DNA of 64,000 bases from Methanobacteriota archaeon (GTDB lineage Archaea; Halobacteriota; Bog-38; Methanoflorentales; Methanoflorentaceae). Every line of letters begins with the position of its first letter. Position 1 is the first letter of the stretch. Where the stretch lies: NCBI GenBank assembly GCA_963719035.1, contig CAVRAO010000002.1, forward strand, positions 228,144-292,143, in the 5' to 3' direction. The notes under the pieces were generated by a model. The model was not told the DNA's origin, did not search any database, and was given only the letters and a program-made list of their open reading frames with translations. The translations under genes and the position numbers were made by a program. Positions 4,037-56,115 of this stretch are shown here, one piece after another.

Positions 4037-4111
4037 TAGCGGGGAGTGGATTTGAACCACTGGTCTACGGGTTATGAGCCCGTCGGGATCTCCTGACTAC
4101 CCCACCCCGCT
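4037..4111 (-). tRNA. tRNA-Met (CAU), probably the initiator tRNA
   Basis: A 75-nt cloverleaf with acceptor AGCGGGG/CCCCGCU, an A1:U72 pair, three G:C pairs closing the anticodon stem (ACGGG/CCCGU), loop CUCAUAA and T-loop UUCAAAU. No CCA is encoded. Confidence 0.8.
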
Positions 4112-4773: not shown

Positions 4774-6150
4774 ATGCACGCTGCGATTATCTGCTCAGAA
4801 ATAGACGCCGCCTCGCAAAACGTAGCGCGTCATCTTCTTAAGCGTGTTCCCTGGGCGAGATGTTCAGAAGAACCTGTTCATTGGACGTATGGAAACTTTC
4901 AGTTGCTGGTAACTAAAGGTAGACTCATCAAACAAGAAGCGCTAGATCGAGAGCTTAATGCAGACTTACTCATATTTGCGTCTAGGCACCAGAGCGAGAA
5001 ACGGAAAGGACCTGTATTTACAGCACACTTTACTGGTAACATTGAAGGCCCTCAACAGGTGGTCCCTACCTTAGCGCGCGCTGCTCCTCGTGCATTGAAA
5101 CTTGTGGTAGAAAGGCTCAAACGATTGTCTAGCATTGAAGTCCTAGTCGAGGTAACCCACCACTGTCCTTGCACTATTAACACGCCGTCGCTCTTCGTGG
5201 AGATTGGTAGTTCAAAATCTGAGTGGATAGATGAAGCCCTTGGCGATACTATGGCACAGGCTATTCTCTCGCTAGACTCACCATTACTGAACTCCCAGTG
5301 CGTGACAGCTGTCGGGTTCGGGGGACCGCACTACGCCCTGCGCCACACTGAGGTTCTGCTCGGTAGCGACATTTGTTATGGGCATATTTTTGCTACATAT
5401 CAACTTGAACGGTTATCGCCAGCAATCGTCCAAGAGGCATTCGAGAAATCACCGGCACAATTCGCGTACTTTGACCGAAAACAGATGGGTGCAGAAAGGG
5501 ATCGTTTGCTGTCTATTTTGCATAACTTGGGTTATGAAGTGCTTAGAAAGAGCGACATTGAGGACCATGGAAACGTTTCGTGGGAGCAATATCTCCGAAT
5601 CAGGCGCGCATTGAGATTAAACGGTGTAGTTTTGGATGGAACGCGTATACACGTAAGCGCGTCATTGCAAGACTCCCTCGACGATCCTACCCTGTCAATG
5701 ACCTACTTTGAGTTCAAACGGCTTGATTTAAACCCCGCAATAATCAAACTGGCTCACGCTGTCGATCGTGAATCCTTTAAGCACTTGATTGAAATCGAAA
5801 AAATAGTATACCTGGAACGTAAAGACGGTAACATTCTCGCTATCTTCGTTCCGGCCGAATTCAACTTGCGAGATGTAACAAGCGCCCTGCTACTAGGATG
5901 TATAGAAATACTAAAAAAGCGGTACGAGGTAGAATATTCTCAGCGAAAATCAAAACTATATATATCCGAACGCAAATTTAACGCACGATTAGCACGATCG
6001 CTTGGCGTGGCTGATGGGCCACTATTTGCGAAACTAGCGCACGGAGAGCCGATCAGAATAAATAGCAAGGTAATTAAACCCGAGGATGTATTTACGAAGG
6101 TTAAAAAGGCATTTGATGTCGCTACTGCTGACAAACTCGGTCAACATTAA
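4774..6150 (+). CDS. dtdA: Archaeal-type D-aminoacyl-tRNA deacylase (DtdA)-like N-terminal domain, with a C-terminal extension of about 200 aa of unknown function
   Basis: The N-terminus (IICSEIDAASQNVARHLL...) resembles the archaeal DTD family. Residues ~260-458 have no family I recognise. Confidence 0.45.
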   Translation: MHAAIICSEIDAASQNVARHLLKRVPWARCSEEPVHWTYGNFQLLVTKGRLIKQEALDRELNADLLIFASRHQSEKRKGPVFTAHFTGNIEGPQQVVPTLARAAPRALKLVVERLKRLSSIEVLVEVTHHCPCTINTPSLFVEIGSSKSEWIDEALGDTMAQAILSLDSPLLNSQCVTAVGFGGPHYALRHTEVLLGSDICYGHIFATYQLERLSPAIVQEAFEKSPAQFAYFDRKQMGAERDRLLSILHNLGYEVLRKSDIEDHGNVSWEQYLRIRRALRLNGVVLDGTRIHVSASLQDSLDDPTLSMTYFEFKRLDLNPAIIKLAHAVDRESFKHLIEIEKIVYLERKDGNILAIFVPAEFNLRDVTSALLLGCIEILKKRYEVEYSQRKSKLYISERKFNARLARSLGVADGPLFAKLAHGEPIRINSKVIKPEDVFTKVKKAFDVATADKLGQH

Positions 6151-23100: not shown

Positions 23101-24642
23101 TTGGAGACGATATATAAGGTGTACAACATGGAGTTTGATTTAAAAGCTCATCTGAAATTCAGCGACAATCTCCCAAAAGAAGCAGATTTCGAACTGCAAA
23201 AAGCAATAGAAGCTGCAAACAACGTACTTTTCATTAAAGGCGTGCCAAGCAACTCTGTCAATGAAGCAGGAAGGATAATTGAATGGCATACGCACGCCAA
23301 TGAGCTTTACGTCAGAATCGTCAGCGGCAGATATACTCGATCGCACGAAGCACTTTTGCGCTTTCGAAAGGCCCTCGGAATTATTATGGGGTCTAAATAT
23401 CGGATAGGTATCAGAGGCTATGAAATTGAAGAGTTTACAATACTAATTGAAGCTGAAACTCCAGTGCATCTCAAACTCCCCTTTGTGAAAGAGGTGTCAT
23501 ACGAAAACAAACTGTTAACGCTCAATCTTTTGGTTGACGAACAAGACGTAGAGAACAAGATACCGGACCGAATCGTAAGTCTTGTCGAGGAGAAGATTAA
23601 ACAAGAACTCTACGGAACAAAGCTTGAGAATTGGGAGTTGGTCTGGACAAGCCCACAAAAAACGGTCCACTTTCGACTCGATCCTACTGAGGAACTAAAA
23701 AAGCGTCAATGGATTAAGCACGGAATGAGTCGAGGACAATGGATTTTCGGCCCTCAAATAACGAAGGTCTTCAACACTTTTAAGAGAATCATCGAAAAGG
23801 AAATACTCGAACGGCTTGGCTATTCAGAGATGATTTTTCCCAAGATGGTTCCGTGGGAAGTCTGGAAACGATCTGGGCATGCACGCGGCGTTTATCCAGA
23901 AATTTACTACATTTCAAGTCCTAAATCGCGTGATCCCGAGTATTGGGAAGAGGTAACCGACTATTATAAAGTCACTAATGAGATTCCCTTAACGTTGATC
24001 AGGGAAAAAATCGATGACCCCCTCGGTGGCATGTGTTATGCGCAATGCCCGTCTTTTTGGCCTTTCATGCAAGGTGAAACGATTTCCTCGCATTCGCTTC
24101 CGGTCAAGGTGTTCGATCGATCGGGCACGTCACATCGCTATGAGAGTGGGGGCATACACGGTATAGAACGTGTTGACGAGTTTCACCGAATTGAAATCGT
24201 GTGGGTCGGTGACCATAACCAAGTCAGTGAAGAAGCCCAGAAACTTGAAAAGCGCTACACCCGCATTTTTAATGACATCTTAGATCTCGATTGGAGAATG
24301 GCACGTGTTACGCCATGGTTTATGGCTCAGGAGGGACTAATTGACACGTCATCTGATCTTTCGGTTGGCACCGTAGATTATGAGGCATATCTGCCGTATC
24401 GTGGTGAACGTGCTGAGAGTGAGTGGCTTGAATTTCAAAACGTAAGCGTAAACGGTGATAAATATCCTCGCGGTTTTAACGTAAAAACCCAAAAAGGAGA
24501 ATTGTGGTCGGGATGTTCGGGTATCGGGTTGGAAAGATGGGCTGCTGCCTTTTTTGCACAGAAAGGTTTAGATATCGAATTTTGGCCGCCGAAATTCGCT
24601 AAGCTTATTGGAGAGCTGCCAGAGGGGATACAATTCCTTTGA
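23101..24642 (+). CDS. serS: Seryl-tRNA synthetase, methanogen type
   Basis: Blocks that align to the unusual methanogen SerRS: FDLKAHLKF, RIGIRGYEIEEF, SRGQWIFGP, SGGIHGIERVDEFHRIE and WSGCSGIGLERW. The start may be Met 23128. Confidence 0.8.
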   Translation: METIYKVYNMEFDLKAHLKFSDNLPKEADFELQKAIEAANNVLFIKGVPSNSVNEAGRIIEWHTHANELYVRIVSGRYTRSHEALLRFRKALGIIMGSKYRIGIRGYEIEEFTILIEAETPVHLKLPFVKEVSYENKLLTLNLLVDEQDVENKIPDRIVSLVEEKIKQELYGTKLENWELVWTSPQKTVHFRLDPTEELKKRQWIKHGMSRGQWIFGPQITKVFNTFKRIIEKEILERLGYSEMIFPKMVPWEVWKRSGHARGVYPEIYYISSPKSRDPEYWEEVTDYYKVTNEIPLTLIREKIDDPLGGMCYAQCPSFWPFMQGETISSHSLPVKVFDRSGTSHRYESGGIHGIERVDEFHRIEIVWVGDHNQVSEEAQKLEKRYTRIFNDILDLDWRMARVTPWFMAQEGLIDTSSDLSVGTVDYEAYLPYRGERAESEWLEFQNVSVNGDKYPRGFNVKTQKGELWSGCSGIGLERWAAAFFAQKGLDIEFWPPKFAKLIGELPEGIQFL

Positions 24643-29401: not shown

Positions 29402-29664
29402 TAATCAAAAACGATGTTGAATATATAGCGCGGCTTGCTTGCATTGAGCTTGATGATGAAGACCTCCAAGAGTTTACGATTCAATTAAATACCATACTTG
29501 AATATTTCGAAGAACTTGAAAATGTCGAAGCGGAGCTAACACACGAAGAGGAAGGCAATGTGCTACGCGGTGACAATATCACGCCGAGCTTATCACAGCA
29601 AGAAGCCCTATCTAACGCTCCGCGAGTCGATAGCGGCTATTTTAGGGGCCCCCGTATACTATGA
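29398..29664 (+). CDS. gatC: Asp/Glu-tRNA amidotransferase subunit C
   Basis: 88 aa with GatC-like sequence, and its stop overlaps the gatA start. Confidence 0.75.
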   Translation: MIIKNDVEYIARLACIELDDEDLQEFTIQLNTILEYFEELENVEAELTHEEEGNVLRGDNITPSLSQQEALSNAPRVDSGYFRGPRIL

Positions 29665-31038
29665 GCCATCGAGAACGTATCGAGAGAGCGCTTGAAACAA
29701 TCGAACGCAGTGACCTTAACGCGTTCATTACGGTCGATCATGAAGGTGCGAGGCGGCAAGCTGCAGAAGCTGATGCAGGCAACATAGATGGAAAATTAGC
29801 CGGTCTGGCAGTCGCTATTAAAGACGCCATTTCAACCAAAGGGCTGAGAACCACGTGCGCTTCGAAGATGCTTGAACATTACGTGCCCCCCTACGACGCA
29901 TTTGTTATTCGGAGACTCCGCGCAGAAGGCGCCGTTTTAATTGGCAAGACGAATATGGACGAATTTTCTATGGGCGCATCAACAGAGACGAGCTTCTTCG
30001 GGCCTTGTAAGAACCCTTGGGATATTAACCGCGTGCCAGGCGGCTCATCTGGAGGCAGTGCAGCTTCTGTAGCTGCATACGAAGCAGATCTCGCATTAGG
30101 TTCCGATACAGGAGGATCAATCAGATGTCCTGCGTCTTTTTGCGGCGTAGTAGGGTTGAAACCGACATATGGCAGGGTTTCACGAAGCGGACTTATTTCG
30201 TATGGTAACTCATTAGAACAAATCGGTCCTATCGCACGGACAGTTAAAGGGTGTGCTACGTTGTTTGAGGTTATTGCGGGCCACGATCCCGCAGACAGCA
30301 CCTCGCTCAATCAACCTACGCCTCGCTACTCCAAATCATTATCAAAGGATATCACTGGTTTGAAGATCGGCGTGCCAATCGATTTTTTTGGTGAAGGGGT
30401 CGATCCAACCGTGGAAAACGCCACACGGGATGCAATAGACGTGCTTGTGGATTTAGGAGCGGAGGCACTTGAGGTGTCAATGCCCAGCTTACAATATGCA
30501 CTTTCCGCCTATTACGTCCTAGCGATGTCGGAAGCCTCGTCTAACCTAGCTCGGGTACTGTGGAATCATCTACGGGCACAGAGTTCAAAAAGATCATGAT
30601 TGGCATCGAACATTCTCGGAGAATAGAGCATTTGGATTTGGAAAAGAGGTTAAAAGGCGCGTGCTTCTCGGGACGTACGCGCTCTCGGCGGGATATTACG
30701 ACAAATATTACCTGAAGGCGCTCAAAGCACGTACGCTGATTAGGGCAGACTTTCAGAGAGCTTTTCAACAACATGATGTACTAATCGCACCAACGATGCC
30801 CCACATTGCATTTAAACTTGGAGAGAAAATAGAGGACCCCTTAGCATTGTACAAGGTGGATATTAACACCGTTCCAGTTAATCTTGCGAACGTTCCAGCG
30901 CTTTCCATTCCGTGTGGTGAGAAGGAAAGGTTGCCAATTGGCATGCAAATCATTGGTGATCGACTCAAAGAGACGCTGTTGTTCAACGTTGCGTGGCAAT
31001 TCGAGCACAACACCAAGTTCAATAAATACGCTGAGTGA
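29661..31038 (+). CDS. gatA: Glu/Asp-tRNA amidotransferase subunit A. Frameshifted.
   Basis: The amidase signature is split between ORFs 29661..30599 and 30661..31038. The +1 frame across the gap reads YDGIIYGHR...FGFGKEVKRRVLLGTYALSAGYYD (GatA consensus). There is an extra G in the GGG run at 30553-30555. Confidence 0.75.
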
Positions 31039-31713: not shown

Positions 31714-32971
31714 TCAAAACAGCCACGCAAGAGTTGACAATGGCGTAGAAGTTGTAGGGTGGAGGGGCACTCTTAATTGAGAGAAGATGCCTAAGTACCG
31801 GCGGGCAATTCTATCCCAAGTAATGGATTGAGCGTATTCATACACTTGGCGGCTCATCGCATTTCGAAGCTCATTATCGCTAACTAAAAGGTTAATTTTT
31901 TCAGCAACGTCCTCAGGATAGCCAAACCTCACCAACATGCCTCTGCCTTGTGACAAGACTTCTGCCGCGTGTGTAAACTCCGTAGCTACAATACTCTTTC
32001 CGCAGCCAATTGCTTGAGATAAAACACCGCTTGATATTTGATTGGGATTTGTGTTTGTCACCGCGCATATATCAGTTGCTAAAAAGTGCGCGATCATCTC
32101 TCTATTTGGCAGGTAGCGCTGGACGAATACGACGTTTTTTGCAAGTCCAAGGCTCTTTACGAGGCTGTCAAGCTTGTCCTTGTATCGCTGTCGCACTTTT
32201 TCGTCAAGAGCTGGATGTGGCACTCCAACGACCATGTTACGTTATGTCTTTGTTTGGATTGGCGTCAATAATAGAAGGTAAAGCTTCTATAACGGTCTCT
32301 ATCCCCTTGTCCGGATTAATTAAACCGTAGCTAGCGATCACAAACTTTCCAGACAAGCCTAAACGCTTTTTCGGCAACGTTGTGTCAATAAAAGGCACCG
32401 CTGGTACCCCGTGCGGGATGAGCGTGAGCTTTTTTTTGTCTAAGCCATAAGTATTGTTTAAAAGTTCAATTCCAGCATATGCCGATGTGACGACCGCATC
32501 TGACAACGCGTAAATGTCTTTCACGACGTCCCTCATTCCAAGCGGTGGATTGGGCAAGATCGTGTGCAGCGTAGTGACTATAGGCTTTCTTACTCGGCGC
32601 ATGAATTCCAAAATGTAGCTGCCAAAGTCGCCTTTATAAAGCCCAAACTCGTGCTGAATATTTATAACGTCAATTTTGGAGCTGTTTATCTTATCAGCAG
32701 CGGCTATGTAACTTTTGACGTCACAATCTTTGATGACGTTAAACGTTTTTGAGATGAAACGCTTGCTAAGCACAAATTCTTTTTTGCTTAGTTGCGCCAC
32801 CTGTTCTCGTAGAGAAGCGTTACTCAAAAAAAGATTCTTGCACTCTTGAACAACGTTGACATTCCAAGTAATATTATCTGCAACATTCGAGATGCTTGCA
32901 GTAAGATCGTTTGTGAAAGTCGCGATACCGCATTCCCGAGGGGGAAACGAACTTACAAAGTTCAAACTCAA
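31714..32971 (-). CDS. Glycosyltransferase family 4. Frameshifted, with an inserted base creating TAA.
   Basis: ORF 32237..32971 is the GT4 N-domain (SFPPRECGIATFTNDL) and ORF 31714..32235 is the GT4 C-domain. A TAA and one extra nt separate them at 32236-32239. Confidence 0.65.
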
Positions 32972-37678: not shown

Positions 37679-40346
37679 CTATGTTCGTTTGACAATAATT
37701 GTCCCTTCGCTTAGCTTAATAACGTCGACGACCATTCCCTCCACAAACAGCTCTTTTTTAACAATGAAATCCGTCGGCAAAAACTCATGACCGTTAATCC
37801 TGACCGATCCCGTTCCGATTTGATCCGCGATTTCCTCAACAGGAACGCTTTTTATTAACTCTGCTACACGCATTGCTTCAGACTTAAAACGCGGACCTAA
37901 CGAACCAAGATTTGGACTAATTTCAGATATATGCTCGAGAATATCTGGTTTGCCTGTCCTATATTCAATATCGGCATTGAGCGTATTATTAATATCTGGC
38001 GCTCCGGTAGACATATCGCGATCTAAATACACATAAAGCCCTTCAATTCGAGCGTTCAGTGCGATGCGTTGCTCAGATTTGTATCGCCTAACACTGGCAA
38101 TAATTTCTTTAACTAGCTCTCCTGTGCGACGGGCTTCCTGGACGTCTTTTTGAGACGCTGCTATGGCTATTTGCTGAACATCCCCTGTGGTGGTTGTCGA
38201 TTCGGTAGAAGTCACGCCGAGTGGTTTTAGGCAAAGAACAGGCCACGAGTGTAAATGAACACTTTCATCGCCGGGGTTTATGTGCGAAAACAACTCCTCC
38301 GAAAAGAATGGACAAAATGGTGCTAGCAGCTTGGCAATCGTATTAAGCGCGAGGTGTAAAGCAGCGAGGCTGTACGCGTCCCGTTCATAGAGCCTTCCTT
38401 TAACCGCTTCGATATAATGGTCAGCTAATATATTCCAAACGAAAGATCGAATTTCTTTAAGGGCCTCGTCAAAGGCAAACCGGTCCATACTGGAGGTGAC
38501 AGAGTCAACCAGCTCAATAAGATTACACATTAACCATATCTCACTTGGATTTTGAGATCTATAAATGACTGGCTGGACTCCTTGAGTGAAATGTAACATG
38601 GCAAATCTAAAGATATTCCAAAGCTTGGTTAAAAATCTTGAAGAGGCTTTCAAGTCTTTTGTGTTATATGGAACGTCAGATCCAACTGAGCCCCCTATTG
38701 CTGCCCATTGCCGAAGCGCGTCCGTGCCATATTGCTCAATAACGCTTTCAGGAGCGACGATATTACCAAGCGACTTGCTCATCTTCTGGTTGTCTTTACC
38801 GAGTACCATCCCATTGACTAAAACGCTTTCCCAGGGCTTGCTCCCCACGAGAGCGTCTGATCGTAGTATTGTATAAAACGCCCATGTCCTAATGATGTCG
38901 TGACCTTGTGGCCGCAATTGAGTGGGAAACTGTCGCTCGTACTGAGCGTTAGGCCAACCTGCTGCATTTAGAGCAGAGAGCGATGAGTCCATCCATGTGT
39001 CTAATACGTCGTATTCAGGTGTAAAACTCGATGACCCGCATTCACAAACACGGGCAGGAGCTTCTTGAGTGGGATCCAAAGGCAACCAACTTTCTTCAGC
39101 AACCACGACCGTATCACATCCGTCACAGTACCAAACTGGAATAGGTGTAGCGAAAATCCGTTGGCGAGAGATACACCAGTCCCACTCGACGCTTTCAGTC
39201 CAATTCTTCAAGCGATGCAATGAGTACCGACGGGATCCACTCAATCTCTGATGCTCGAGCGAGTATTGTATCCTTATTAATCTTTACAAACCACTGGCTC
39301 TCAGAAAGGATCTCAATCGGGGTTTTACATCGATCGTGAAATCCCACATTCTGCTCAATGCGTTCCTGTTTTTGTAAGAGCTTACCGTTAAAAAGATCTC
39401 CGATAATGCGCTCTTTTGCCTCGCCAATGGTTAGGCCGCTGTATCGTGTATCAGTCATGCGGCCATCTTTTCCAATCACTTTTTTAAGTCGCAGATTGTG
39501 CTTTTTCCACCAGCGCACGTCTTGCTTGTCGCCAAATGTGCAGATCATCACTACGCCAGTGCCAAACGTGGGATCAACCGCTTCGTCGCCAATTATGGCG
39601 ACCTCCTCATCATAAAGGGGCGTTCGTACTGTCCCGCCAATTAAACGGACATAGCGTTCATCACTGGGGTTAACTGCAACAGCAACGCAAGCACCTAAAA
39701 GTTCGGGACGCGTTGTAGCTATTTCGACTGATCCTAAGTCGCTGCTTTCAAAAAAAAGATGATGAAGAATGGTCGACCGTGAGTCATAATCTACTTCAGC
39801 AAATGCGATAGCCGTCTCACAGCGTGGGCACCAGTTTACGGGGTGCTCATCTTTGTAAATGAGGTCGTTATTATACATTTGCACGAACGATTTCTGCGTC
39901 TTAGCGTAGTAGGCCTTATCCATAGTCACAAACTCTTGCGACCAATCTATGGAAAAAGCAAGACGCTGCATCGTTCCCTTCATCAACGCAATGTTTTCTC
40001 GAGTCAAGCTTTCGCACAGCCCTCTGAATTCTGCACGTGGGATCTGGTTTTTCGTTACATTGTAGGTTGTTTCGACCTTTACCTCAGTCGGAAGCCCGTG
40101 ACAGTCCCATCCTTGCGGAAATTTAACGTCACAGCCCTTCATACGCTTATAGCGCGCGATGAAGTCTATATAACACCAATTAAGGGCGTTTCCAAGGTGA
40201 AAATTACCAGTTGGATATGGCGGCGGCGTATCGATTATAAAGCGCTCTTTTATTTCCCCGCCGCGATAACGATACATGTCCGAGTCCCAAGCGGTCAGCC
40301 ATTTTGACTCAATGTATTCATAATCAAAGTTCTTTGGTATAGCCAT
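37679..40346 (-). CDS. valS: Class-I aminoacyl-tRNA synthetase, most likely valyl-tRNA synthetase. Frameshifted.
   Basis: ORF 39195..40346 carries the HLGN (HIGH-type) N-terminus and ORF 37679..39244 carries WDWCISRQR and KMSKS. The join ...EIEWIPS/YSLHRLKNW needs one G removed near 39226-39234. The total is about 890 aa. Confidence 0.7.
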
Positions 40347-45128: not shown

Positions 45129-45265
45129 CGCCGGGGTTGGGATTTGAACCCAAGCGATGCGTCCTCTATAAAAGCCCCGCAGGCTTTTCTATGCAAGGCA
45201 TCAACAGGTCTCGAGCCTGCCGCGTTGGGACTCGTTGCCGATTAGTCCGCTCTGCCACCCCGGGC
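45129..45265 (-). tRNA. tRNA-Ser(CGA)-like gene of 137 nt, carrying about 50 nt of non-canonical inserted sequence that may be introns
   Basis: A perfect T-arm (UUGGG-UUCAAAU-CCCAA), acceptor 3' CCCCGGC with G73, a Ser-type D-arm (GAGCGGACUAA) and a canonical anticodon arm GCAGG-CUCGAGA-CCUGU. The 5' acceptor reads GCCCGGGG, one C too many. Confidence 0.55.
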
Positions 45266-45318
45266 ATGCGCACTGATGTGCGTGCTTCTTATAGCAAAAC
45301 TCCTATAAAGATTATTGG

Positions 45319-45531
45319 ATGCCAAAAGAACACCTCTGTGTCACCGTAGAGCTGAAAGGACAGGCACAAGAAGTGAATTTGCCTTTGGGTTCAGACTACG
45401 AGCGATTGCTAAGTGAACTCAAATTAAATTCTGAAGAGGTTCTTGTTTTTGTAGAGAATGAGGCAGTCCCCTTCGACGCTCCCGTGCAACCAGGGATTGT
45501 ACGTGTGTTAAAAGTCGTTTCCGGCGGTTAA
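45319..45531 (+). CDS. ThiS/MoaD/SAMP-like ubiquitin-fold sulfur-carrier protein with a C-terminal GG
   Basis: 70 aa with a beta-grasp pattern, ending ...VLKVVSGG. Confidence 0.6.
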   Translation: MPKEHLCVTVELKGQAQEVNLPLGSDYERLLSELKLNSEEVLVFVENEAVPFDAPVQPGIVRVLKVVSGG

Positions 45532-46478: not shown

Positions 46479-47018
46479 TTAATCCTCTTTTGCACGGAAA
46501 CGATTTATAGCTGTTCTAATCGAATCAGCTACTGTTATGCTCGCTCTTCGCGCCACGGGACTCAAGCCGTCCCCAAAATCACAATTAGCCGGTTGAATGC
46601 CGATGAGAAAAATGTTGCAGTTCATTTCCGTTTGGAGGTATTCGCCGAGCGCTAATAGAGAAGCCTTGTGTGTTGAGACCGATGAACCTTTAAGGTCGTT
46701 GAGCTGAAAGATGTGTGCATCGCCAGGCAAAGCGCCGAAATCTGCTGCATCTACAAGCACAACACAAGTTGGTTTTACTCGTTTGAGGTACCCCGTAAAG
46801 TTTTCAGGAGCGTTTTGACAGTTAAGCACAACGACCGAAGGGTCATCAAAACTCGAGCTGAGTCTATCAACAACAGCAAGTCCTACTGCGTCATCACGTC
46901 TTAATTCATTTCCAATTCCCAAGATCGCGATTTTTGAACAGGCATATCCCGCAAAGAGGCGATAAACGTTTAACTCGAATTCATCCATCATGGCTGCACC
47001 GAATGCTGTCGGTCGCAA
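46479..47018 (-). CDS. HycI-like (hydrogenase maturation protease family) endopeptidase
   Basis: ILGIGNELRRDDAVGLAVVDRL ... VVLVDAADFGALPGD. It overlaps the tfuA 3' end. Confidence 0.55.
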   Translation of the reverse strand: MRPTAFGAAMMDEFELNVYRLFAGYACSKIAILGIGNELRRDDAVGLAVVDRLSSSFDDPSVVVLNCQNAPENFTGYLKRVKPTCVVLVDAADFGALPGDAHIFQLNDLKGSSVSTHKASLLALGEYLQTEMNCNIFLIGIQPANCDFGDGLSPVARRASITVADSIRTAINRFRAKED

Positions 47019-47668
47019 AACCTCACGACTTCTTGAACCACGAGCTTCGCATCTCGTTTCTTAAGGTCGTAGTCATGACTAGCAAGAAACGTTTTGATCT
47101 TAGTACGATCACCGCTATCTATCTGTCCCCTCAACTCAGCTGTCTTTAAAACTAATGGAAAGCTTCGTTCCATATAAAAGAAGCTCTTTGCGAGGTTAAG
47201 CAAAGCGTTGCTCATGTCTCTGTCCACAATTGAAGCGTCTAAGAGTGAGTGTAAGGCAACGCGTATATTGATGAGCGGTTCGGATACAGGCTCGTAAGTG
47301 ATTGGGTTGTACGCCACGGCAACTTCATCATCTGCTTCAATAACTCCCTCTTTAAAACACGTATAGATCTTCCCGACTCCAATCATCCCGAAACTGTCGA
47401 GTTCAGAGGCGCGCAACGCCCCCATGCTTGATCCACCAACAACAGTCACGCCCGACTTAATTGCACCTATTATTTCTCGATGTGAAACCGCAGCACGATT
47501 AAAAAAAACGCCGTCAATCAATCCGATGATCGATATGCCCGTTTTAGCCGCTTTCAAGATATCTCCTCGTACGGCGGGGGGGCAGCATCTTATCCTTTGA
47601 TCAGCGGAAGACACTTCAGACCAAGACAAACTTGGACCTGTAAATATTACGCAGTCACATTTCGCCAT
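46988..47668 (-). CDS. tfuA: TfuA-like protein
   Basis: 226 aa of TfuA family, overlapping the ycaO stop. Confidence 0.7.
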   Translation of the reverse strand: MAKCDCVIFTGPSLSWSEVSSADQRIRCCPPAVRGDILKAAKTGISIIGLIDGVFFNRAAVSHREIIGAIKSGVTVVGGSSMGALRASELDSFGMIGVGKIYTCFKEGVIEADDEVAVAYNPITYEPVSEPLINIRVALHSLLDASIVDRDMSNALLNLAKSFFYMERSFPLVLKTAELRGQIDSGDRTKIKTFLASHDYDLKKRDAKLVVQEVVRFCDRQHSVQP

Positions 47669-48864
47669 TCTTTGTAGCGCGTTCCTTTTCGTTCCCGATC
47701 CAAGAAATAGACCTCAAAGCCTGGTATAGTTGCACGAACTACGGGAACACGAATAGCGCTTACTGTTATATCAGAGATAATAACGCTGTTTGCCACATTT
47801 TGCAAGCGCTCGAGGACGATTCTGATGTCACTGTCGATAGATGTAGTTGCCATAGCTTCAAGTTCGTCGAGCTCGATCATCTCGCGTGGTTTTTCTAACC
47901 AATGCTTATTGAGCCTTTTCATCCTCTCATACCCAATCATTCGGGCTACCGATTCCCGATTGGTGTCTTCACGAGCGCCGTGAATCTGTGTAGCTCGCGA
48001 CTGCGCCACTTCAGTCAGTGCTCTAAGCGCGGCAATTTCGGGATCGGTATGACTTCCGGCCCCCATAACCAATAAAGAAGCATCACGCATTTTTTCGTCA
48101 TCTGATGCTGCCACAATAGTTGGAACGCCAGTATCAGTGCGGAGCGACCACAGCCGAACGACAACGCCTTGCTGCTCAAACTTGTCGATTATTTCGCTAA
48201 CTCGACCTGCACCTACGTTGAGACCTAAACCGGGGTTGCGGTTTATCTCTGCAATGCTTACTGCGTCTCTCTCAATTACCTCCATCAGGCCATGAAAGAT
48301 CGCCTCTTCCATTACGTTGCCTGATGCAAGACCATTTGTATTGCTTCTAAAGAGCTGCCAATTACCTCGCACTGGCGAATAAGGATGAAAAACGGCGTTT
48401 GCCGGAACAATTACCTCTTCATCGTTAAGAAGGTCCCACCCTGGGTACCACTCAATTTTTGTATCGGTAGAAAGGTAGCCCGGCAATATGAGATCAGTGG
48501 GATTAACGGCGCGATTTTCTCCACTAAGGTGCGCGTATGAATCGAACAATAATTGCTCCTTGAGATTTCCAACTTCAGCAGAGAACCGTTCGACAGCCTC
48601 CATTATCACCGAAACGCGGGCTTCCGTTTCACTTGTGCCCTTGCCAGCATACACAGAAATAGCACCGTCTGCTGCCGACGGCCTTATAGCAGAAAATACG
48701 GGCAACCCTATGCGATCTAGCCCGGAAATATCTGCTATCCGTGTTATCCCAACCTCTGGTACGGCTGCCTGAACACGTTCTAGTGTCTCTGCTGGCGGTA
48801 TCACCCTGTGCGTATCAATGCAATACGTCTTTGGTGCAGTGTGCAGTTCAATCTTGCTTGTCAT
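47647..48864 (-). CDS. ycaO: YcaO-domain protein (methanogenesis marker 1; McrA glycine thioamidation)
   Basis: 405 aa YcaO ATP-binding domain immediately followed by tfuA. Confidence 0.75.
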   Translation of the reverse strand: MTSKIELHTAPKTYCIDTHRVIPPAETLERVQAAVPEVGITRIADISGLDRIGLPVFSAIRPSAADGAISVYAGKGTSETEARVSVIMEAVERFSAEVGNLKEQLLFDSYAHLSGENRAVNPTDLILPGYLSTDTKIEWYPGWDLLNDEEVIVPANAVFHPYSPVRGNWQLFRSNTNGLASGNVMEEAIFHGLMEVIERDAVSIAEINRNPGLGLNVGAGRVSEIIDKFEQQGVVVRLWSLRTDTGVPTIVAASDDEKMRDASLLVMGAGSHTDPEIAALRALTEVAQSRATQIHGAREDTNRESVARMIGYERMKRLNKHWLEKPREMIELDELEAMATTSIDSDIRIVLERLQNVANSVIISDITVSAIRVPVVRATIPGFEVYFLDRERKGTRYKEWRNVTA

Positions 48865-51098: not shown

Positions 51099-52058
51099 TT
51101 AAACCAGCCTCATCAACGGTGTGTTTTCCGTCTGCGGTTCGACTCCTAGCTCTTTGGTGCTCTCCTCGTTTATGATGTCGATCATCGCCATAGCGGGGAA
51201 GATGATCGTTGACAATTCGACCGGACCATACAAGAGATAGTCGGCGCCGACAATACCACAGATCATGTTTGCACCGATACTACATGGTTCCCACACCTCT
51301 GGGACGGGCCGGTTCAGTGTGTGGCCGGTCTTTCTGAATCTGCGCAACCACGTCCACGCATCAGGGATGTTGTGTGGTCCGCCTCCGGTCGGGAACCCGA
51401 GCGTGCCCTTGAATGCGACCACCGATCGGATTGACTGTCCTGCGCCTGCGCCGAGTGAGAGCGAAGCGACATCGAGCAGCGGCCGCGTAATGCCGGATTC
51501 TTCACTAGACTTTAGGAGTCCCTGTTCCTGTCCTGTGCCGCCAACCGTAAGTATGTCTAGTCGGCCTCTCGGGCTCACGTCCGTCGGATTGAACGCCAAA
51601 ACGATGGCTGAGTCGACATCTGTTTGCTTTATCGCCTCCCACTCTTCTGGCAGCGCACTTGCATTGACGGAGTTATAAACGGCGAGTTTTCCCGCGCCGA
51701 TTTCATCCGCGTATTTTGCCGCGAACATGCGCACCGCCGGCACACTTGAATCGACCAGGAAGGCGATCCCGGGGGCGGTTTCCAGGTGCCAGTCGATGTA
51801 CTTTTTCATCGCCTCTTCGGTCTCGGCGATCACCTGGTTCCAGTAGCCGAGCCCCGTCAGGTCCGACAGCTCAACCTGTGTGTTCCACTGCGTTTCGGCG
51901 AGTTCCTTGTCAATTTCACCTTTCTGGGCGTCTAAAACCACCTTATGCTTGTCGTAGAACATCGAGCTGGCGAGCACGGTCGGATATTCGCCGGGTTGCC
52001 CGCCAACGTGAAAACCGCCTATTTCGAAAACGGTTTGCTTTTTATCGTATCTAAACAT
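51099..52058 (-). CDS. mtrH: Tetrahydromethanopterin S-methyltransferase subunit H
   Basis: 319 aa. Last gene of the operon, with pterin-binding family similarity. Confidence 0.85.
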   Translation of the reverse strand: MFRYDKKQTVFEIGGFHVGGQPGEYPTVLASSMFYDKHKVVLDAQKGEIDKELAETQWNTQVELSDLTGLGYWNQVIAETEEAMKKYIDWHLETAPGIAFLVDSSVPAVRMFAAKYADEIGAGKLAVYNSVNASALPEEWEAIKQTDVDSAIVLAFNPTDVSPRGRLDILTVGGTGQEQGLLKSSEESGITRPLLDVASLSLGAGAGQSIRSVVAFKGTLGFPTGGGPHNIPDAWTWLRRFRKTGHTLNRPVPEVWEPCSIGANMICGIVGADYLLYGPVELSTIIFPAMAMIDIINEESTKELGVEPQTENTPLMRLV

Positions 52059-52085
52059 GCTATATGAACCTCCTCACGTCGTCAT

Positions 52086-52328
52086 TCATCCGAATAGCTT
52101 AAACAAGACCGACAGCTGCGTCAGCGAATTGAGCACGATGAATAGGATGATGCCTCCAATGAGGCCATAGGCAATGCCTATGTCCCTACCAACGCGCTGT
52201 CCGTACCGCTGCGCGACTTCGGCCATTGCAAACTCCAATCGCTCTTCGACCGAGTCGAGTTGCTTCTGGAGCTCTCGGTAGTCAGTTTGGTCTACCATTA
52301 CCTGGGGGAATTGCTTTGGCATATTCAC
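52086..52328 (-). CDS. mtrG: Tetrahydromethanopterin S-methyltransferase subunit G
   Basis: 80 aa with one C-terminal TM helix, in the operon position. Confidence 0.75.
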   Translation of the reverse strand: MNMPKQFPQVMVDQTDYRELQKQLDSVEERLEFAMAEVAQRYGQRVGRDIGIAYGLIGGIILFIVLNSLTQLSVLFKLFG

Positions 52329-52331
52329 ACC

Positions 52332-52622
52332 TCACTTATAGAAGTAGTAGAGCAATGGCAGTCCCGCAATAAGGCACGCAGCTGCGAAGCCCAATGCAAA
52401 CCCGAGTATCGAGTTCCCCCCGTACCCCGAGTCAAGCTTGAGCGTTCGTGTCGTGATTAGCGCACGATACCTTATGTCGTTCATGAGATCGTCTAACAAT
52501 GCCATGCTCGGCGCCATGGGTTTAGCTATGCCCTGGTCGAAGTCAATGACTGATGTGGGTGCGACCTCTTCGCCGGCTGCTGCCGGCCCTTCGCCGCCCC
52601 CTCCAAAACGTTCTGCTGCCAT
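52332..52622 (-). CDS. mtrF: Tetrahydromethanopterin S-methyltransferase subunit F
   Basis: 96 aa with a C-terminal TM helix, in the operon position. Confidence 0.7.
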   Translation of the reverse strand: MAAERFGGGGEGPAAAGEEVAPTSVIDFDQGIAKPMAPSMALLDDLMNDIRYRALITTRTLKLDSGYGGNSILGFALGFAAACLIAGLPLLYYFYK

Positions 52623-52630
52623 TTTTCACC

Positions 52631-53341
52631 TCAAGCTAGGGCTAGTAACCCCAAGATTCCGATTGAAATCAGCAGCCCGATCACAATACCCTCAACCTTT
52701 CCAGCGTAAACGCCGGCAGCGTACTTGTTCAAGTTGCCGATGGTCTTCATGTGGAACTGCAGACCCTGCACGCGGGCTTGTATCGCTGCTATTTCTGCTG
52801 CCATAGGGGCCTCTACAAGGGCCTCCTCGGTTTCTTTTTCTTTAAGCTCAACGACGACTGGAGGTTCCGGGTAAGCTCCGGGATCTCGTCCAATCAGCTC
52901 CTTAACCTTCGCGGATATCGCGCTGACATCCTCGTTGTTAATCATGCTGAAGAATTCGACCTGCTTTTGGAACCTTTCAAGGTGCTCTTCGTTCAAGTTT
53001 TCGATGAACGGTATAGCCCCTTGAGCATCGATTATGCGTCCTTCCTTAACGCCGTTCTTGTACAGTGCCTCCAGAGATTGTCCGGTCACGTGACCCATGA
53101 TTTCTGAGCCGCAGAGGATCAGAAATCGTATGTTCGGATTCGAGATGATGTTTACTATGACCTTCTCGAGGCCGATGTTCTCGGTCTTCGCCGTGCCCTC
53201 GATCGCTGCTCCTTGGTCAGTGAAGAGTTTGCCGAAGTGAGACCCTAAGGTCACCACAGCGACGGAACTCTCCGGATCTCCAAAGAAGAAATCTCCCTTG
53301 ACGACCGGCCAGTTAGGCGCAGGTGCAACTTTTTCTGCCAC
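52631..53341 (-). CDS. mtrA: Tetrahydromethanopterin S-methyltransferase subunit A (corrinoid-binding)
   Basis: NWPVVKGDFFFGDPESSVAVVTLGSH...NPNIRFLILCGSE with a C-terminal TM anchor. Confidence 0.9.
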   Translation of the reverse strand: MAEKVAPAPNWPVVKGDFFFGDPESSVAVVTLGSHFGKLFTDQGAAIEGTAKTENIGLEKVIVNIISNPNIRFLILCGSEIMGHVTGQSLEALYKNGVKEGRIIDAQGAIPFIENLNEEHLERFQKQVEFFSMINNEDVSAISAKVKELIGRDPGAYPEPPVVVELKEKETEEALVEAPMAAEIAAIQARVQGLQFHMKTIGNLNKYAAGVYAGKVEGIVIGLLISIGILGLLALA

Positions 53342-53343
53342 GG

Positions 53344-53658
53344 TTACATCCCCCCTCTAACGCGAAGGATTATGGTCACGAGAGCAAGGAAAATCATCGC
53401 AACAGTGAACCCGTAGAACGCGTTGGTCCACATGCCCGCCCAGTAATGCGCCTTTTCTCTGCCTGGAAACGAGTCGATGAGTGGCTTGTCCGCTGAAAGC
53501 GAGTTTACCACGCCGTCCGCTAGAGCGTCATACTCCTCAATTTGAGCCGCAACGGGCTCCAAGGAGTAGAAGACAAGGTCGTCCCGCTCCTTCGCTATGA
53601 CGAACTCTTCGACATCCATCCGCAGGCCAACGTCAGACGACATGTCTACGAATTTCAT
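53344..53658 (-). CDS. mtrB: Tetrahydromethanopterin S-methyltransferase subunit B
   Basis: 104 aa with a C-terminal TM helix, MtrB-like. Confidence 0.8.
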   Translation of the reverse strand: MKFVDMSSDVGLRMDVEEFVIAKERDDLVFYSLEPVAAQIEEYDALADGVVNSLSADKPLIDSFPGREKAHYWAGMWTNAFYGFTVAMIFLALVTIILRVRGGM

Positions 53659-54464
53659 GCGACTTCCTCCTCAGTCGGTAATAGACCGGTTGATAGCACA
53701 GACGCCGCATCTTCTTTCGTATCTGCCCAGAATCGCAGGTAGTAGATGACCCAGCCGCAGATCGCGACTATTAGCGTAGGCACTGCTGCCTGAACGCCGT
53801 TGATGGCACCTGAAGCGATTCCTGTGACGATCATGGCGATGAACCCTGTTGACAGAGCAAGATTAAGCGTTCTCTGTTGTCTCTCGTCGGGACCAAGGCA
53901 CGCGTTAAACGGATGAAGCATAGCCATGCCGCCGACAATGAAGACTGCAATGATGAACCCTGAAGCAACTACGTAGCTCATGATCGCGTTGAAGGCATAA
54001 CTTCCAGCGATCGCCGTACTGAAACCGAGTATGATAAGGGACGCTGCCATTGCGATTTCCGTCATCGACATTTCCATTATGTGGATGTTCATTTTGATGA
54101 CACGTCTTGCCATAACTCCGTTAACGAGACCTATAATCGCGGCCAAAATCAGCGCGATAATAGGGGCTGCTACTTCAACGCCGTAATTCTTTGCTACTGC
54201 GAGACCGAGCAAGACGGCTACTTGACCAGCTCCGAGCGATAGCAAACCTATCGACGGCACGCCGGTACCGAGCCCATAGCTCGCCACTCGCCTGACGGCG
54301 TCTGCTCCATAGTACACTGCAAGTATTGCGCCAAGTGCAGCGATGAACGAAAACCACGCGGTACCCGTCCAGCTGTTGAGATAACTCGCGATGTAAATGC
54401 CTATCAAGCCACCTAAAATTCCGATGACCATCAATTGACGCGGCGATTTTTCACCTTCTGCCAT
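53655..54464 (-). CDS. mtrC: Tetrahydromethanopterin S-methyltransferase subunit C
   Basis: Polytopic membrane protein in the operon position. Confidence 0.8.
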   Translation of the reverse strand: MAEGEKSPRQLMVIGILGGLIGIYIASYLNSWTGTAWFSFIAALGAILAVYYGADAVRRVASYGLGTGVPSIGLLSLGAGQVAVLLGLAVAKNYGVEVAAPIIALILAAIIGLVNGVMARRVIKMNIHIMEMSMTEIAMAASLIILGFSTAIAGSYAFNAIMSYVVASGFIIAVFIVGGMAMLHPFNACLGPDERQQRTLNLALSTGFIAMIVTGIASGAINGVQAAVPTLIVAICGWVIYYLRFWADTKEDAASVLSTGLLPTEEEVA

Positions 54465-54465
54465 G

Positions 54466-55206
54466 TTAAATCCCTCCTGGCAACATGACGCTGATTAGCA
54501 GCGCAAAAAGGCCGCCGACTGCTGATACGACGAGACTTGCAACGATCGACTTTGGTATGCGCTTGAATTTAGGATCGTGGAAGCCTTCAATCGTGCCGCC
54601 GATGTTGTACGATGCCATCACGCAGTTAAGGAAGAATATCCCAATAGCGAAGGCTGCTGCGAGCGATACGTAGTAAGGGGCCGAATAGGTGCCGAACGTC
54701 GCAGAAAACCCTGGAATCGCTTTGTACGTTTCAACCAGCGCAAAGTACACGAGAGCGCCGCCGACACCGGCGATGAACGCCCCTATGATGCCACTGATGA
54801 AACTGACCATCGGAGATCCGTGGCCTTCAGTCCCACGTGATACGTACAGGTCCTGACGCCATTTTGTGATGGGGTCATATTTTATTTTAGCTGATGAGAG
54901 CGGCACACCTGCGCCGTAAACGTACATGACGTTTGCGATAAACGCTAAAATCGCAATCATCAATGCTGCACTCACTCCCCCCATGACTATAGTGTAAGCA
55001 AAGTCACCAGGGTGCAAGTAGTACGCGGAGCCTGCTCCGATGAGTCCTGTAAGACCTGACGCAGCAGCAAGCATCGTCGTCCCGGTTCCGACTCCCGTTG
55101 CCTGCGACATAGCCGCAGGAGCGCCGCCGACCGGAATAAAGTGGACGCCTGCACCGATCAGAATCCCGCCGAGTATAATCCACACCCAGAACAAAAGATC
55201 AAACAT
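54466..55206 (-). CDS. mtrD: Tetrahydromethanopterin S-methyltransferase subunit D
   Basis: Polytopic membrane protein in the operon position. Confidence 0.8.
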   Translation of the reverse strand: MFDLLFWVWIILGGILIGAGVHFIPVGGAPAAMSQATGVGTGTTMLAAASGLTGLIGAGSAYYLHPGDFAYTIVMGGVSAALMIAILAFIANVMYVYGAGVPLSSAKIKYDPITKWRQDLYVSRGTEGHGSPMVSFISGIIGAFIAGVGGALVYFALVETYKAIPGFSATFGTYSAPYYVSLAAAFAIGIFFLNCVMASYNIGGTIEGFHDPKFKRIPKSIVASLVVSAVGGLFALLISVMLPGGI

Positions 55207-55212
55207 CGTGCA

Positions 55213-56115
55213 TCACTCCGCCTCTGTTTCTTCTTTGTAAGTGCCGTAGCGCTGTCTGGAGTAGCGTTCGAGGTATACGTTCATGATGATGAAGATCACG
55301 ACGATTATTACTCCAGCGACTGCCGACCACCAATCCTTTACCACGACTTCCTTCCAGAAGTGTAAGTAAACGACGAGGCCAAAGCCCAGCCCTGTCAGTG
55401 GTCCTCCGAATTTGGAACAGAACCACGCGCAGTCTATAGAATTCCTGAGGCCTGATTCAGCTTTGCGCACTACGCTGCCTGAATGAGCCGCGTTGACGCC
55501 AGAGCCATAAGGCCTATCTTGATAGTACCGATCGGTTCCAAGGTGAACGTCACCCACTGCGGAACCTACGCCACCAAGAGCGATTCCCCAAATAAATGCA
55601 AGCACGACAAAGGGGAACGGACTTAGGTTTTGTGCAATTAGTATCCACGTTAACAATAGGACGCTAAAATTCGCTATGAAGCCGTGTGCCATTAACACGG
55701 GCGTGTGCGTTCTCAGGACATCCAAATAGATAGGTTGCCCAAATCGCGATTGACTCGCCAGTCTGCCCACGTAGGACGTCGTGGCATAAACGCCGTGTAT
55801 CAATGCAGTAACGAAAGCACCGGCTACAAGAGCGAAGAAGACGCCGATCGGACTCTCACTTCCAGTGACAGACAAGACCGATATCGTTGTTGCCGCTCCA
55901 ATCGCTGCGTAGAACGGATAAGAAGCTGGTTCACCGGAAATCGCTTTGTTATAAAGCCTGTGCAGATAACCCATCTGGGGGGCTAACTGTACTTGCGAAT
56001 TCGGGTTACTCTGTGAACCAACGTCGGATTCGAGATCCTCCGCTATACCAGCAATCAGGGCTGCGCCGCCAACGATCGTCAGAGCGCCTAATTCTACCAT
56101 CATTTGCGGATCCAT
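55213..56115 (-). CDS. mtrE: Tetrahydromethanopterin S-methyltransferase subunit E
   Basis: 300-aa polytopic membrane protein, first gene of mtrEDCBAFGH. Confidence 0.85.
   Translation of the reverse strand: MDPQMMVELGALTIVGGAALIAGIAEDLESDVGSQSNPNSQVQLAPQMGYLHRLYNKAISGEPASYPFYAAIGAATTISVLSVTGSESPIGVFFALVAGAFVTALIHGVYATTSYVGRLASQSRFGQPIYLDVLRTHTPVLMAHGFIANFSVLLLTWILIAQNLSPFPFVVLAFIWGIALGGVGSAVGDVHLGTDRYYQDRPYGSGVNAAHSGSVVRKAESGLRNSIDCAWFCSKFGGPLTGLGFGLVVYLHFWKEVVVKDWWSAVAGVIIVVIFIIMNVYLERYSRQRYGTYKEETEAE

Follow-up and report, generated by a model that had tools for sequence, protein, structure and literature searches.

The locus at positions 45129-45265 of the window (the whole stretch of DNA analysed here, 64 000 nt) raises the question of whether a tRNA-Ser(CGA)-like sequence with additional bases in two places is a gene carrying two introns at non-canonical sites, or else a damaged element or one derived from a tRNA. 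Both readings had been put forward in an earlier note. On the minus strand, the tRNA landmarks named in that note were all confirmed, namely the T-arm (TTGGG-TTCAAAT-CCCAA), the 3' acceptor strand (CCCCGGC) followed by G73, a serine-type D-loop (AGCGGACTAA) and the anticodon arm CAGG-CTCGAGA-CCTG, with the anticodon CGA at 45211-45213. The 5' acceptor strand as assembled is 8 nt long (GCCCGGGG) and the CCA end is not encoded. The gene begins GCCCGGGG-TG-GCAG-AGCGGACTAATCGGCAACGAGTCCCAACGCG-GCAGG-CTCGAGA-CCTGT and continues with TGATGCCTTGCATAGAAAAGCCTGCGGGGCTTTTATAGAGGACGCATCGC-TTGGG-TTCAAAT-CCCAA-CCCCGGC-G. We conclude that the tRNA-Ser(CGA) gene at 45129-45265 is very probably genuine and interrupted by two BHB introns at non-canonical sites, which are predicted to be spliced by protein enzymes, in a lineage where such introns were unexpected. 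The parts of the locus are as follows.

45129-45265, minus strand: whole tRNA-Ser(CGA) gene, 137 nt here, matched by covariance model R1 with 76.7 bits
45243-45265, minus strand: exon 1, GCC[C]GGGG-TG-GCAG-AGCGGACTA, running from the 5' strand of the acceptor stem through U8, G9 and the 5' strand of the D-stem into the D-loop as far as A21
45226-45242, minus strand: predicted intron 1, 17 nt, AUCGGCAACGAGUCCCA, at approximately 21/22 at the D-loop/D-stem junction
45193-45225, minus strand: exon 2, ACGC-G-GCAGG-CUCGAGA-CCUGU-UGAUGC-CUUGC, with the 3' strand of the D-stem, the anticodon arm and the variable arm's 5' half
45161-45192, minus strand: predicted intron 2, 32 nt, AUAGAAAAGCCUGCGGGGCUUUUAUAGAGGAC, within the long variable arm, in its loop
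45129-45160, minus strand: exon 3, GCAUCG-C-UUGGG-UUCAAAU-CCCAA-CCCCGGC-G, with the variable arm's 3' strand, the T-arm, the 3' strand of the acceptor stem and G73
45262-45264, minus strand: CCC run with the surplus base (GGG on the plus strand, in CCCCGGGC); CC in all relatives
45286-45293, minus strand: TATA-like box, TATAAGAA, which precedes the mature 5' end by 21-28 nt

The splice border in a BHB motif has been established experimentally to lie between the second and third residues of the bulge (PMC4307357). A 3-4-3 BHB core, consisting of a 4 bp helix and two 3 nt bulges on opposite strands, is present in both introns, and excision by this rule removes 17 nt (45226-45242) and 32 nt (45161-45192). 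In intron 1, the central helix H is formed by GGAC (45245-45248) and GUCC (45228-45231), the bulges are UAA on the 5' side (45242-45244) and CAA on the 3' side (45225-45227), and the inner helix h' is UCG/CGA with the loop GCAA (45232-45241). The local minimum-energy fold of this region (GGAC-UAA-UCG-GCAA-CGA-GUCC-CAA) consists of H, a 3 nt bulge and h'. There is no outer helix adjoining the 3' bulge, merely two D-stem pairs beyond an internal loop, and the motif is of the relaxed HBh' type. Intron 2 is a strict hBHBh' motif with the outer helix h GAUG/CAUC, the central helix CCUU (45195-45198)/GAGG (45163-45166), and the bulges GCA (45192-45194) and ACG (45160-45162). Its h' (UA.AAAAGCC/GGCUUUU.UA) forms a hairpin at 45170-45188 with the loop UGCGG, which includes the 7 bp hairpin AAAAGCC-TGCGG-GGCTTTT that had been noticed in the second insert. 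Among shuffled inserts, 0.135 % fit the BHB motif at the required register of intron 1 and 0.44 % fit at the exact register of intron 2. The simple BHB criterion is permissive elsewhere in the precursor, and the weight of the BHB evidence therefore lies in the coincidence of the motif with an independently known junction and not in the criterion alone. Full-length minimum-energy folds do not yield the BHB model (-48.2 against -54.9 kcal/mol).

These boundaries modify the earlier description. The two inserts lie at approximately 21/22 and in the variable-arm loop, so that neither is at 37/38, as had been recognised. However, the first is not a 16 nt insert separating the D-arm from the anticodon stem but 17 nt located within the D-loop/3' D-stem junction, and the CGGC that had been taken as the 3' strand of the D-stem (D-arm GCAG...CGGC) is intron sequence, from the most variable and indel-bearing segment in the orthologues. 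The approximately 35 extra nt reported before the T-arm do include a real insert, the 32 nt intron, but the remainder belongs to the long variable arm that serine tRNAs normally have.

In-silico excision gives an 87 nt product that ARAGORN calls as an intronless tRNA-Ser(cga) with a full cloverleaf. The product has the features of a class II tRNA-Ser, i.e. a 7 bp acceptor stem, an anticodon stem running from G27.U43 to G31-C39 and carrying a serine anticodon, a long variable arm with a 6 bp stem and a 5 nt loop, a T-arm and G73.

Natural genes resembling this product were found by scanning a metagenome collection for the exon 1 and exon 2 sequences 2-9 nt apart, with the CTCGAGA loop as part of the search pattern. 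There were matches in 69 contigs, and the predicted junction GGACUA|ACGC was exact in 65 of them. Complete genes of 85-86 nt are present in 61 of the 69, and all 61 were called as intronless tRNA-Ser(cga) by ARAGORN. Leaving the variable arm aside, one of these genes (L095) agrees with the predicted product at all 68 positions, and a further 11 differ from it by 1 nt. The variable arms of the intronless genes, with a 6 bp stem, a 3-5 nt loop and a trailing C, follow a plan like that of the predicted product. Proteins encoded near the gene in L095 are close to those of Ca. Methanoperedens, and those in L119 belong to ANME-2c. A neighbouring SAMP2 gene is found in five of the intronless contigs (L093, L095, L107, L117 and L128), and the retention of this neighbour makes these genes positional orthologues of the window gene.

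The comparison also bears on two apparent oddities. G37 in the anticodon loop had been considered unusual for a UCG reader, but CTCGAGA is invariant in the 18 distinct complete genes that were aligned (and in the 69 contigs by design of the search), so that G37 is normal for this tRNA. In the D-stem of the product, the pairs G10-C25 and C11-G24 are accompanied by an A12.C23 mismatch, with (A)CGC as the 3' strand. The same mismatch is found in 65 of the 69 intronless relatives and, on this comparison, it is no defect of the window gene. Three relatives have U23, which restores a Watson-Crick pair, and L128 reads AAAU at the junction. The Bog-38 orthologues mostly have A12.C23, with A.A in L019 and L021. 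A.C at D-stem 12-23 is a conserved non-canonical feature.

A covariance model (R1) was built solely from the 18 distinct intronless tRNA-Ser(CGA) genes. R1 matches the window gene end to end (76.7 bits, E approximately 1e-14) with exactly two inserts, one of 18 nt against 1 model position at the end of the D-loop and one of 35 nt against 2 model positions in the variable loop. The insert boundaries drawn by hand were thus reproduced by a model that did not use them. Default ARAGORN missed the gene and called only an initiator tRNA-Met at 4037-4111 in the window, and the Rfam tRNA model gave no match on the gene, either at the gathering threshold or with E up to 10 on a 601 nt region. The tRNA at 4037-4111 (minus strand) is of the archaeal initiator type, intronless and with A1-U72; apart from it and the gene at 45129-45265, the window has no site with a T-arm-like motif.

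Syntenic full-length orthologues containing both inserts were found in 20 further loci of the Bog-38/Methanoflorens-like clade, at 87-100 % identity. They are 136 nt long in most cases (range 134-137) and score 83.3-84.5 bits against R1. Two additional copies are partial, L002 because it is cut by a contig end and L006 because of a 5' deletion. Across the 20 orthologues, variation is seen in 5 of 87 columns in the exons, 25 of 50 in the introns and 57 of 61 in the flanks (exon versus intron, Fisher p = 3e-9), and the exons are under purifying selection. The five variable exon columns are D-loop position 16 (C/U), position 23 (C/A), two bases in the variable loop and one T-stem change of U-A to U-G. 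Hence exon 1 is unvarying apart from Y16, and is the same as in the intronless genes; exon 2 is unvarying save for position 23 and the two variable-loop bases; and exon 3 is unvarying but for the T-stem change, which is in L018.

Pairing in the BHB helices is maintained despite G-U changes, and two compensatory changes are seen. For intron 1, U-A replaces G-C as the third pair of h' (TCG/CGA to TCT/AGA) in L016-L020, and a variant of H3 (GUCC to GUUC) retains a G.U pair. In intron 2, where 17 of the 32 columns are variable, H and h are paired in 100 % of 15 distinct sequences, with GAGG, AAGG and GGGG all able to pair with CCUU, and h' is 95.5 % paired, including one double change of C-G to U-A. 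Covariation statistics for the whole structure over the orthologues were not significant, the sequences being too similar.

A pseudogene or remnant of a tRNA was ruled out, given the intact stems in the 20 full-length orthologues and the 5 of 87 variable exon columns against 57 of 61 in the flanks; the exceptions are the surplus C of the window copy and the 5' deletion in L006. A split or permuted tRNA gene was also ruled out, as the exons are contiguous and collinear in 21 loci. In L006 (positions 5150-5335; JACWML010000002.1, a SPRUCE MAG), a deletion of approximately 115 nt with GAC microhomology at the junction takes approximately the first 20 nt of the tRNA, the intergenic promoter region and approximately the first 12 codons of SAMP2. 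This is either a real gene loss or a misassembly. It was not taken as a split tRNA since the deletion is local and also removes the SAMP2 start.

Marker protein 11, encoded near the tRNA gene, is 86-94 % identical to proteins of uncultured 'Halobacteriota/Methanomicrobia' MAGs from peat and fen (bog_38, fen_29, SPRUCE and Microflora Danica) and only approximately 55 % identical to Methanocella proteins. Going by MAG names and these identities rather than by a tree, the host is an uncultured peat methanogen of the Bog-38/Methanoflorens-like clade of the Halobacteriota, related to Methanocellales. No tRNA is found beside marker protein 11 at the Methanocella loci, and these were therefore unusable as comparators. 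Both introns are found throughout the Bog-38-like clade, over which the marker protein 11 identities are 70-94 %. As they are absent from the positional orthologues in Methanosarcinales, both introns were probably gained in the ancestor of the Bog-38-like clade and have been kept since. A PLSDB plasmid search gave no match.

Other interpretations of the two inserts were weighed against splicing at the BHB borders. It is very improbable that the inserts are retained, leaving either a tRNA-like RNA with two expansion hairpins or a conserved element that is not a tRNA. Although both inserts do form stable local hairpins, they evolve approximately nine times faster than the exons, carry indels, and lie at just the points from which clean excision is predicted by BHB geometry. 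A D-loop insert together with a 37 nt variable loop would also be expected to disturb the tertiary core and recognition by SerRS. The reading in which the tRNA has another anticodon and only one intron, within the anticodon loop, which comes from the intron mode of ARAGORN, has next to no chance of being correct. ARAGORN -i does return one-intron models for the orthologues, and for the window at a lowered threshold only, but near-identical orthologues receive different identities (Phe, Leu, Arg, Gly or Lys), and the models assign the invariant CUCGAGA arm to the 'intron' and the fastest-evolving bases to the anticodon, and leave poor D-stems and anticodon stems. This reading is refuted by the comparison with the intronless genes and by the R1 alignment. 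Thus, with default ARAGORN and Rfam missing the gene and intron mode misassigning its orthologues, the genomes of abundant peat and permafrost methanogens can seem to have no tRNA-Ser(CGA) or to have spurious tRNAs.

It is also conceivable, but improbable, that the introns are real and that intron 2 is cut in another register, with a 34 nt excision generating the variable arm UGAUGC-CUU-GCAUCG. A GCAU repeat is present at both borders of intron 2, the variable loops of the intronless relatives are 3-5 nt and commonly CUU, and R1 sets a 35 nt insert against its 2 positions. However, none of the 34 nt registers, checked by hand, yields a 4 bp central helix with two 3 nt bulges, whereas the 32 nt register is a strict 3-4-3 motif with both outer helices. 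For intron 1, a further BHB register (23,38) was dropped, as its product would exceed all the intronless relatives in length by 2 nt. The 7 bp hairpin as a second anticodon arm (CUGCGGG, Arg-like) was ruled out because this is the least conserved region. Excision of 17 and 32 nt at the BHB borders remains the preferred reading, and the two non-canonical introns proposed in the earlier note are supported by the BHB folds, by a product like natural intronless genes and by near-invariant exons throughout the clade. That note had looked to tRNA predictors and to the orthologous locus for checks; ARAGORN in intron mode gave no consistent single-intron model while R1 shows two inserts, and at the orthologous locus 20 full-length copies of the gene are conserved. 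The alternative of a tRNA-derived or damaged element does not hold for the gene, which is conserved across the clade, and could apply to no more than the one surplus C.

The sequence does contain a surplus C in its 5' acceptor strand, as had been pointed out, but it is unique to the window. GCCGGGG, a perfect partner for CCCCGGC, is read in every one of the 21 related loci where the start of the gene is present. One of these loci is an independent short-read Logan contig (L001) with three differences from the window in 5,764 nt, of which one is the surplus C; the flanks of the C are identical. The extra base costs 7.6 bits against R1 (84.3 bits for L001 and 76.7 bits for the window). Frameshifts also split two essential genes in the window. 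If one G is taken out of the GGG at 39232-39234, the two ValRS fragments (39195-40346 and 37679-39244) become an ORF of 888 aa, and taking one G out of the GGG at 30553-30555 joins the two GatA fragments (29661-30599 and 30661-31038) into 458 aa. Three like +1 events in GGG runs, and the lack of the base in all relatives and in a near-identical contig, make it probable that the surplus C is a homopolymer consensus error, and the three events suggest that homopolymer over-calling is systematic in this assembly.

If the surplus C were real, the acceptor stem of the window copy would be damaged, with an 8 nt 5' strand and a bulged or mis-registered stem; the UCG codon would then be read by another tRNA-Ser, and the gene would still be functional in the lineage. 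We regard this as unlikely. In its favour, the base is in the sequence as given, with its 7.6 bit cost, and the L006 relative really does lack the 5' part of the gene. In addition, not every difference from L001 is an error of the window, as an extra AA at L001 1288-1289 (window 47568) breaks the conserved N-terminus of tfuA (VIFTGPSL...PPAVRGDIL) and the window version looks correct there. The reading of a damaged copy is opposed by the GCCGGGG in all 21 relatives, including the near-identical contig, and by the position of the base as a +1 in a plus-strand GGG run, the signature that splits ValRS and GatA.

The TATA-like box is a putative archaeal promoter, and an A/T box (TATAAGAA or TATATGAA) lies at an equal distance in the aligned loci L001, L003-L005, L007-L021 and L023, with the remainder of the flank diverging. 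The tRNA gene lies between SAMP2 (small archaeal modifier protein 2; 45319-45531, divergent) and an unannotated ORF of 120 aa. Divergent SAMP2 beside tRNA-Ser(CGA) is found in this clade, in Methanoperedens-like contigs and in other contigs and, to judge from these loci, the microsynteny is conserved over a long time. On one side of the locus are marker protein 11 (a methanogenesis marker), an HycI-like protease, tfuA and ycaO, with the ycaO-tfuA pair, the protease and marker protein 11 all within 46479-48864; on the other are an AP-endonuclease-2-family protein (xylose isomerase-like TIM barrel) and Alba. The mtr genes mtrE, D, C, A and H (Pfam matches) are at 51099-56115, and the ycaO-tfuA cluster and mtr genes are consistent with a methanogen genome. 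A GT4-family glycosyltransferase at 31714-32971 (minus strand) is present as two adjacent ORFs, 244 aa N-terminal and 173 aa C-terminal, with a frame change near 32236, a site that is not at a G run. The 513 aa protein encoded at 23101-24642 (plus strand) has PF18490 (tRNA_bind_4) and a class II core domain; it is the methanogen-type SerRS and is expected to charge tRNA-Ser(CGA). A Pfam scan of 49 window ORFs, out of 63 listed, found neither EndA nor RtcB. No C/D-box motifs were seen in the introns by eye, and nearby snoRNA matches were weak, below threshold and outside the gene.

On the basis of what is established for tRNA processing in archaea, we infer transcription, cleavage, ligation and aminoacylation of tRNA-Ser(CGA) as follows. 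Transcription from the TATA-box promoter would give a precursor of approximately 136 nt containing two EndA-type introns, with each exon-intron boundary folded as a BHB. The splicing endonuclease would cut after the second base of each 3 nt bulge, and an RtcB-type ligase would join the three exons. RNase P, 3' processing and CCA addition would then produce the 87 nt class II tRNA, to be charged with serine by the methanogen-type SerRS (23101-24642) and to read UCG.

In the accepted picture, non-canonical or multiple tRNA introns are tied to broad-specificity endonucleases ((alpha-beta)2, epsilon2 or loop-bearing alpha4). Euryarchaeota with alpha4 or alpha'2 enzymes have one intron, at 37/38, with a strict BHB (PMC4090602), and multi-intron tRNAs in Euryarchaeota have been listed for M. 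kandleri and M. thermautotrophicus only (PMC4033280). 'Cluster II' Euryarchaeota encode exclusively alpha'2 endonucleases (PMC5829648) and, according to reviews and in-vitro work, the alpha'2 and alpha4 euryarchaeal enzymes need the strict motif (PMC5829648, PMC3239211). For example, M. kandleri tRNA-Glu has an HBh' intron in its D-loop that the alpha'2 EndA of A. fulgidus does not remove efficiently (PMC5829648). Intron 2, being strict, should be cut by any archaeal EndA. The relaxed HBh' motif of intron 1 conflicts with the requirement stated for the euryarchaeal alpha'2 and alpha4 enzymes. Such introns were not found reported for Methanocellales or Methanoflorens in the literature that was searched. 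A clade-wide, selectively kept tRNA with two non-canonical introns, one of them HBh', in a relative of Methanocellales is a concrete test of the rule linking endonucleases and introns, and the intronless positional orthologues in Methanosarcinales indicate that the introns were gained after the split from that group. It is possible, though doubtful, that the Bog-38/Methanoflorens-like clade ('Cluster II', thought to have a strict alpha'2 enzyme and canonical introns) is an independent case of co-evolution of tRNA introns and endonuclease.

The introns are of a known kind, the archaeal BHB tRNA introns, in a new occurrence, a euryarchaeal group expected to hold only canonical ones. The known intron sites include 20/21, 22/23 and 45/46 (PMC4090602), and introns in the D-arm and variable arm of A. 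pernix tRNAs were confirmed by cDNA (PMC4307357). The window gene is like the archaeal multi-intron tRNAs, which are found in Thermoproteales, other Crenarchaeota, Thaumarchaeota, Nanoarchaeota, Korarchaeum and ARMAN-2, and in the Euryarchaeota M. kandleri and M. thermautotrophicus, in having short BHB introns (17 and 32 nt), more than one per gene and at D-arm and variable-arm sites. It is unlike them in that the host is a Methanocellales-related 'Cluster II' organism, for which single canonical introns are given in reviews (PMC4090602, PMC5829648), and in having no accompanying canonical intron at 37/38. The pre-tRNA-Glu(UUC) of M. kandleri resembles it in having a euryarchaeal D-loop intron with a proper 5' bulge and a 3' site without an outer helix (PMC5829648). 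However, M. kandleri has an (alpha-beta)2 enzyme and its second intron is canonical, whereas the second intron of the window gene is in the variable arm and an alpha'2 enzyme is expected. The intronless Methanosarcinales tRNA-Ser(CGA) genes (ANME-2c and Methanoperedens-like; L082-L150) share the same or nearly the same body as the predicted product, including G37, G73 and A12.C23, and differ from the window gene in the absence of introns and in the sequence of the variable arm.
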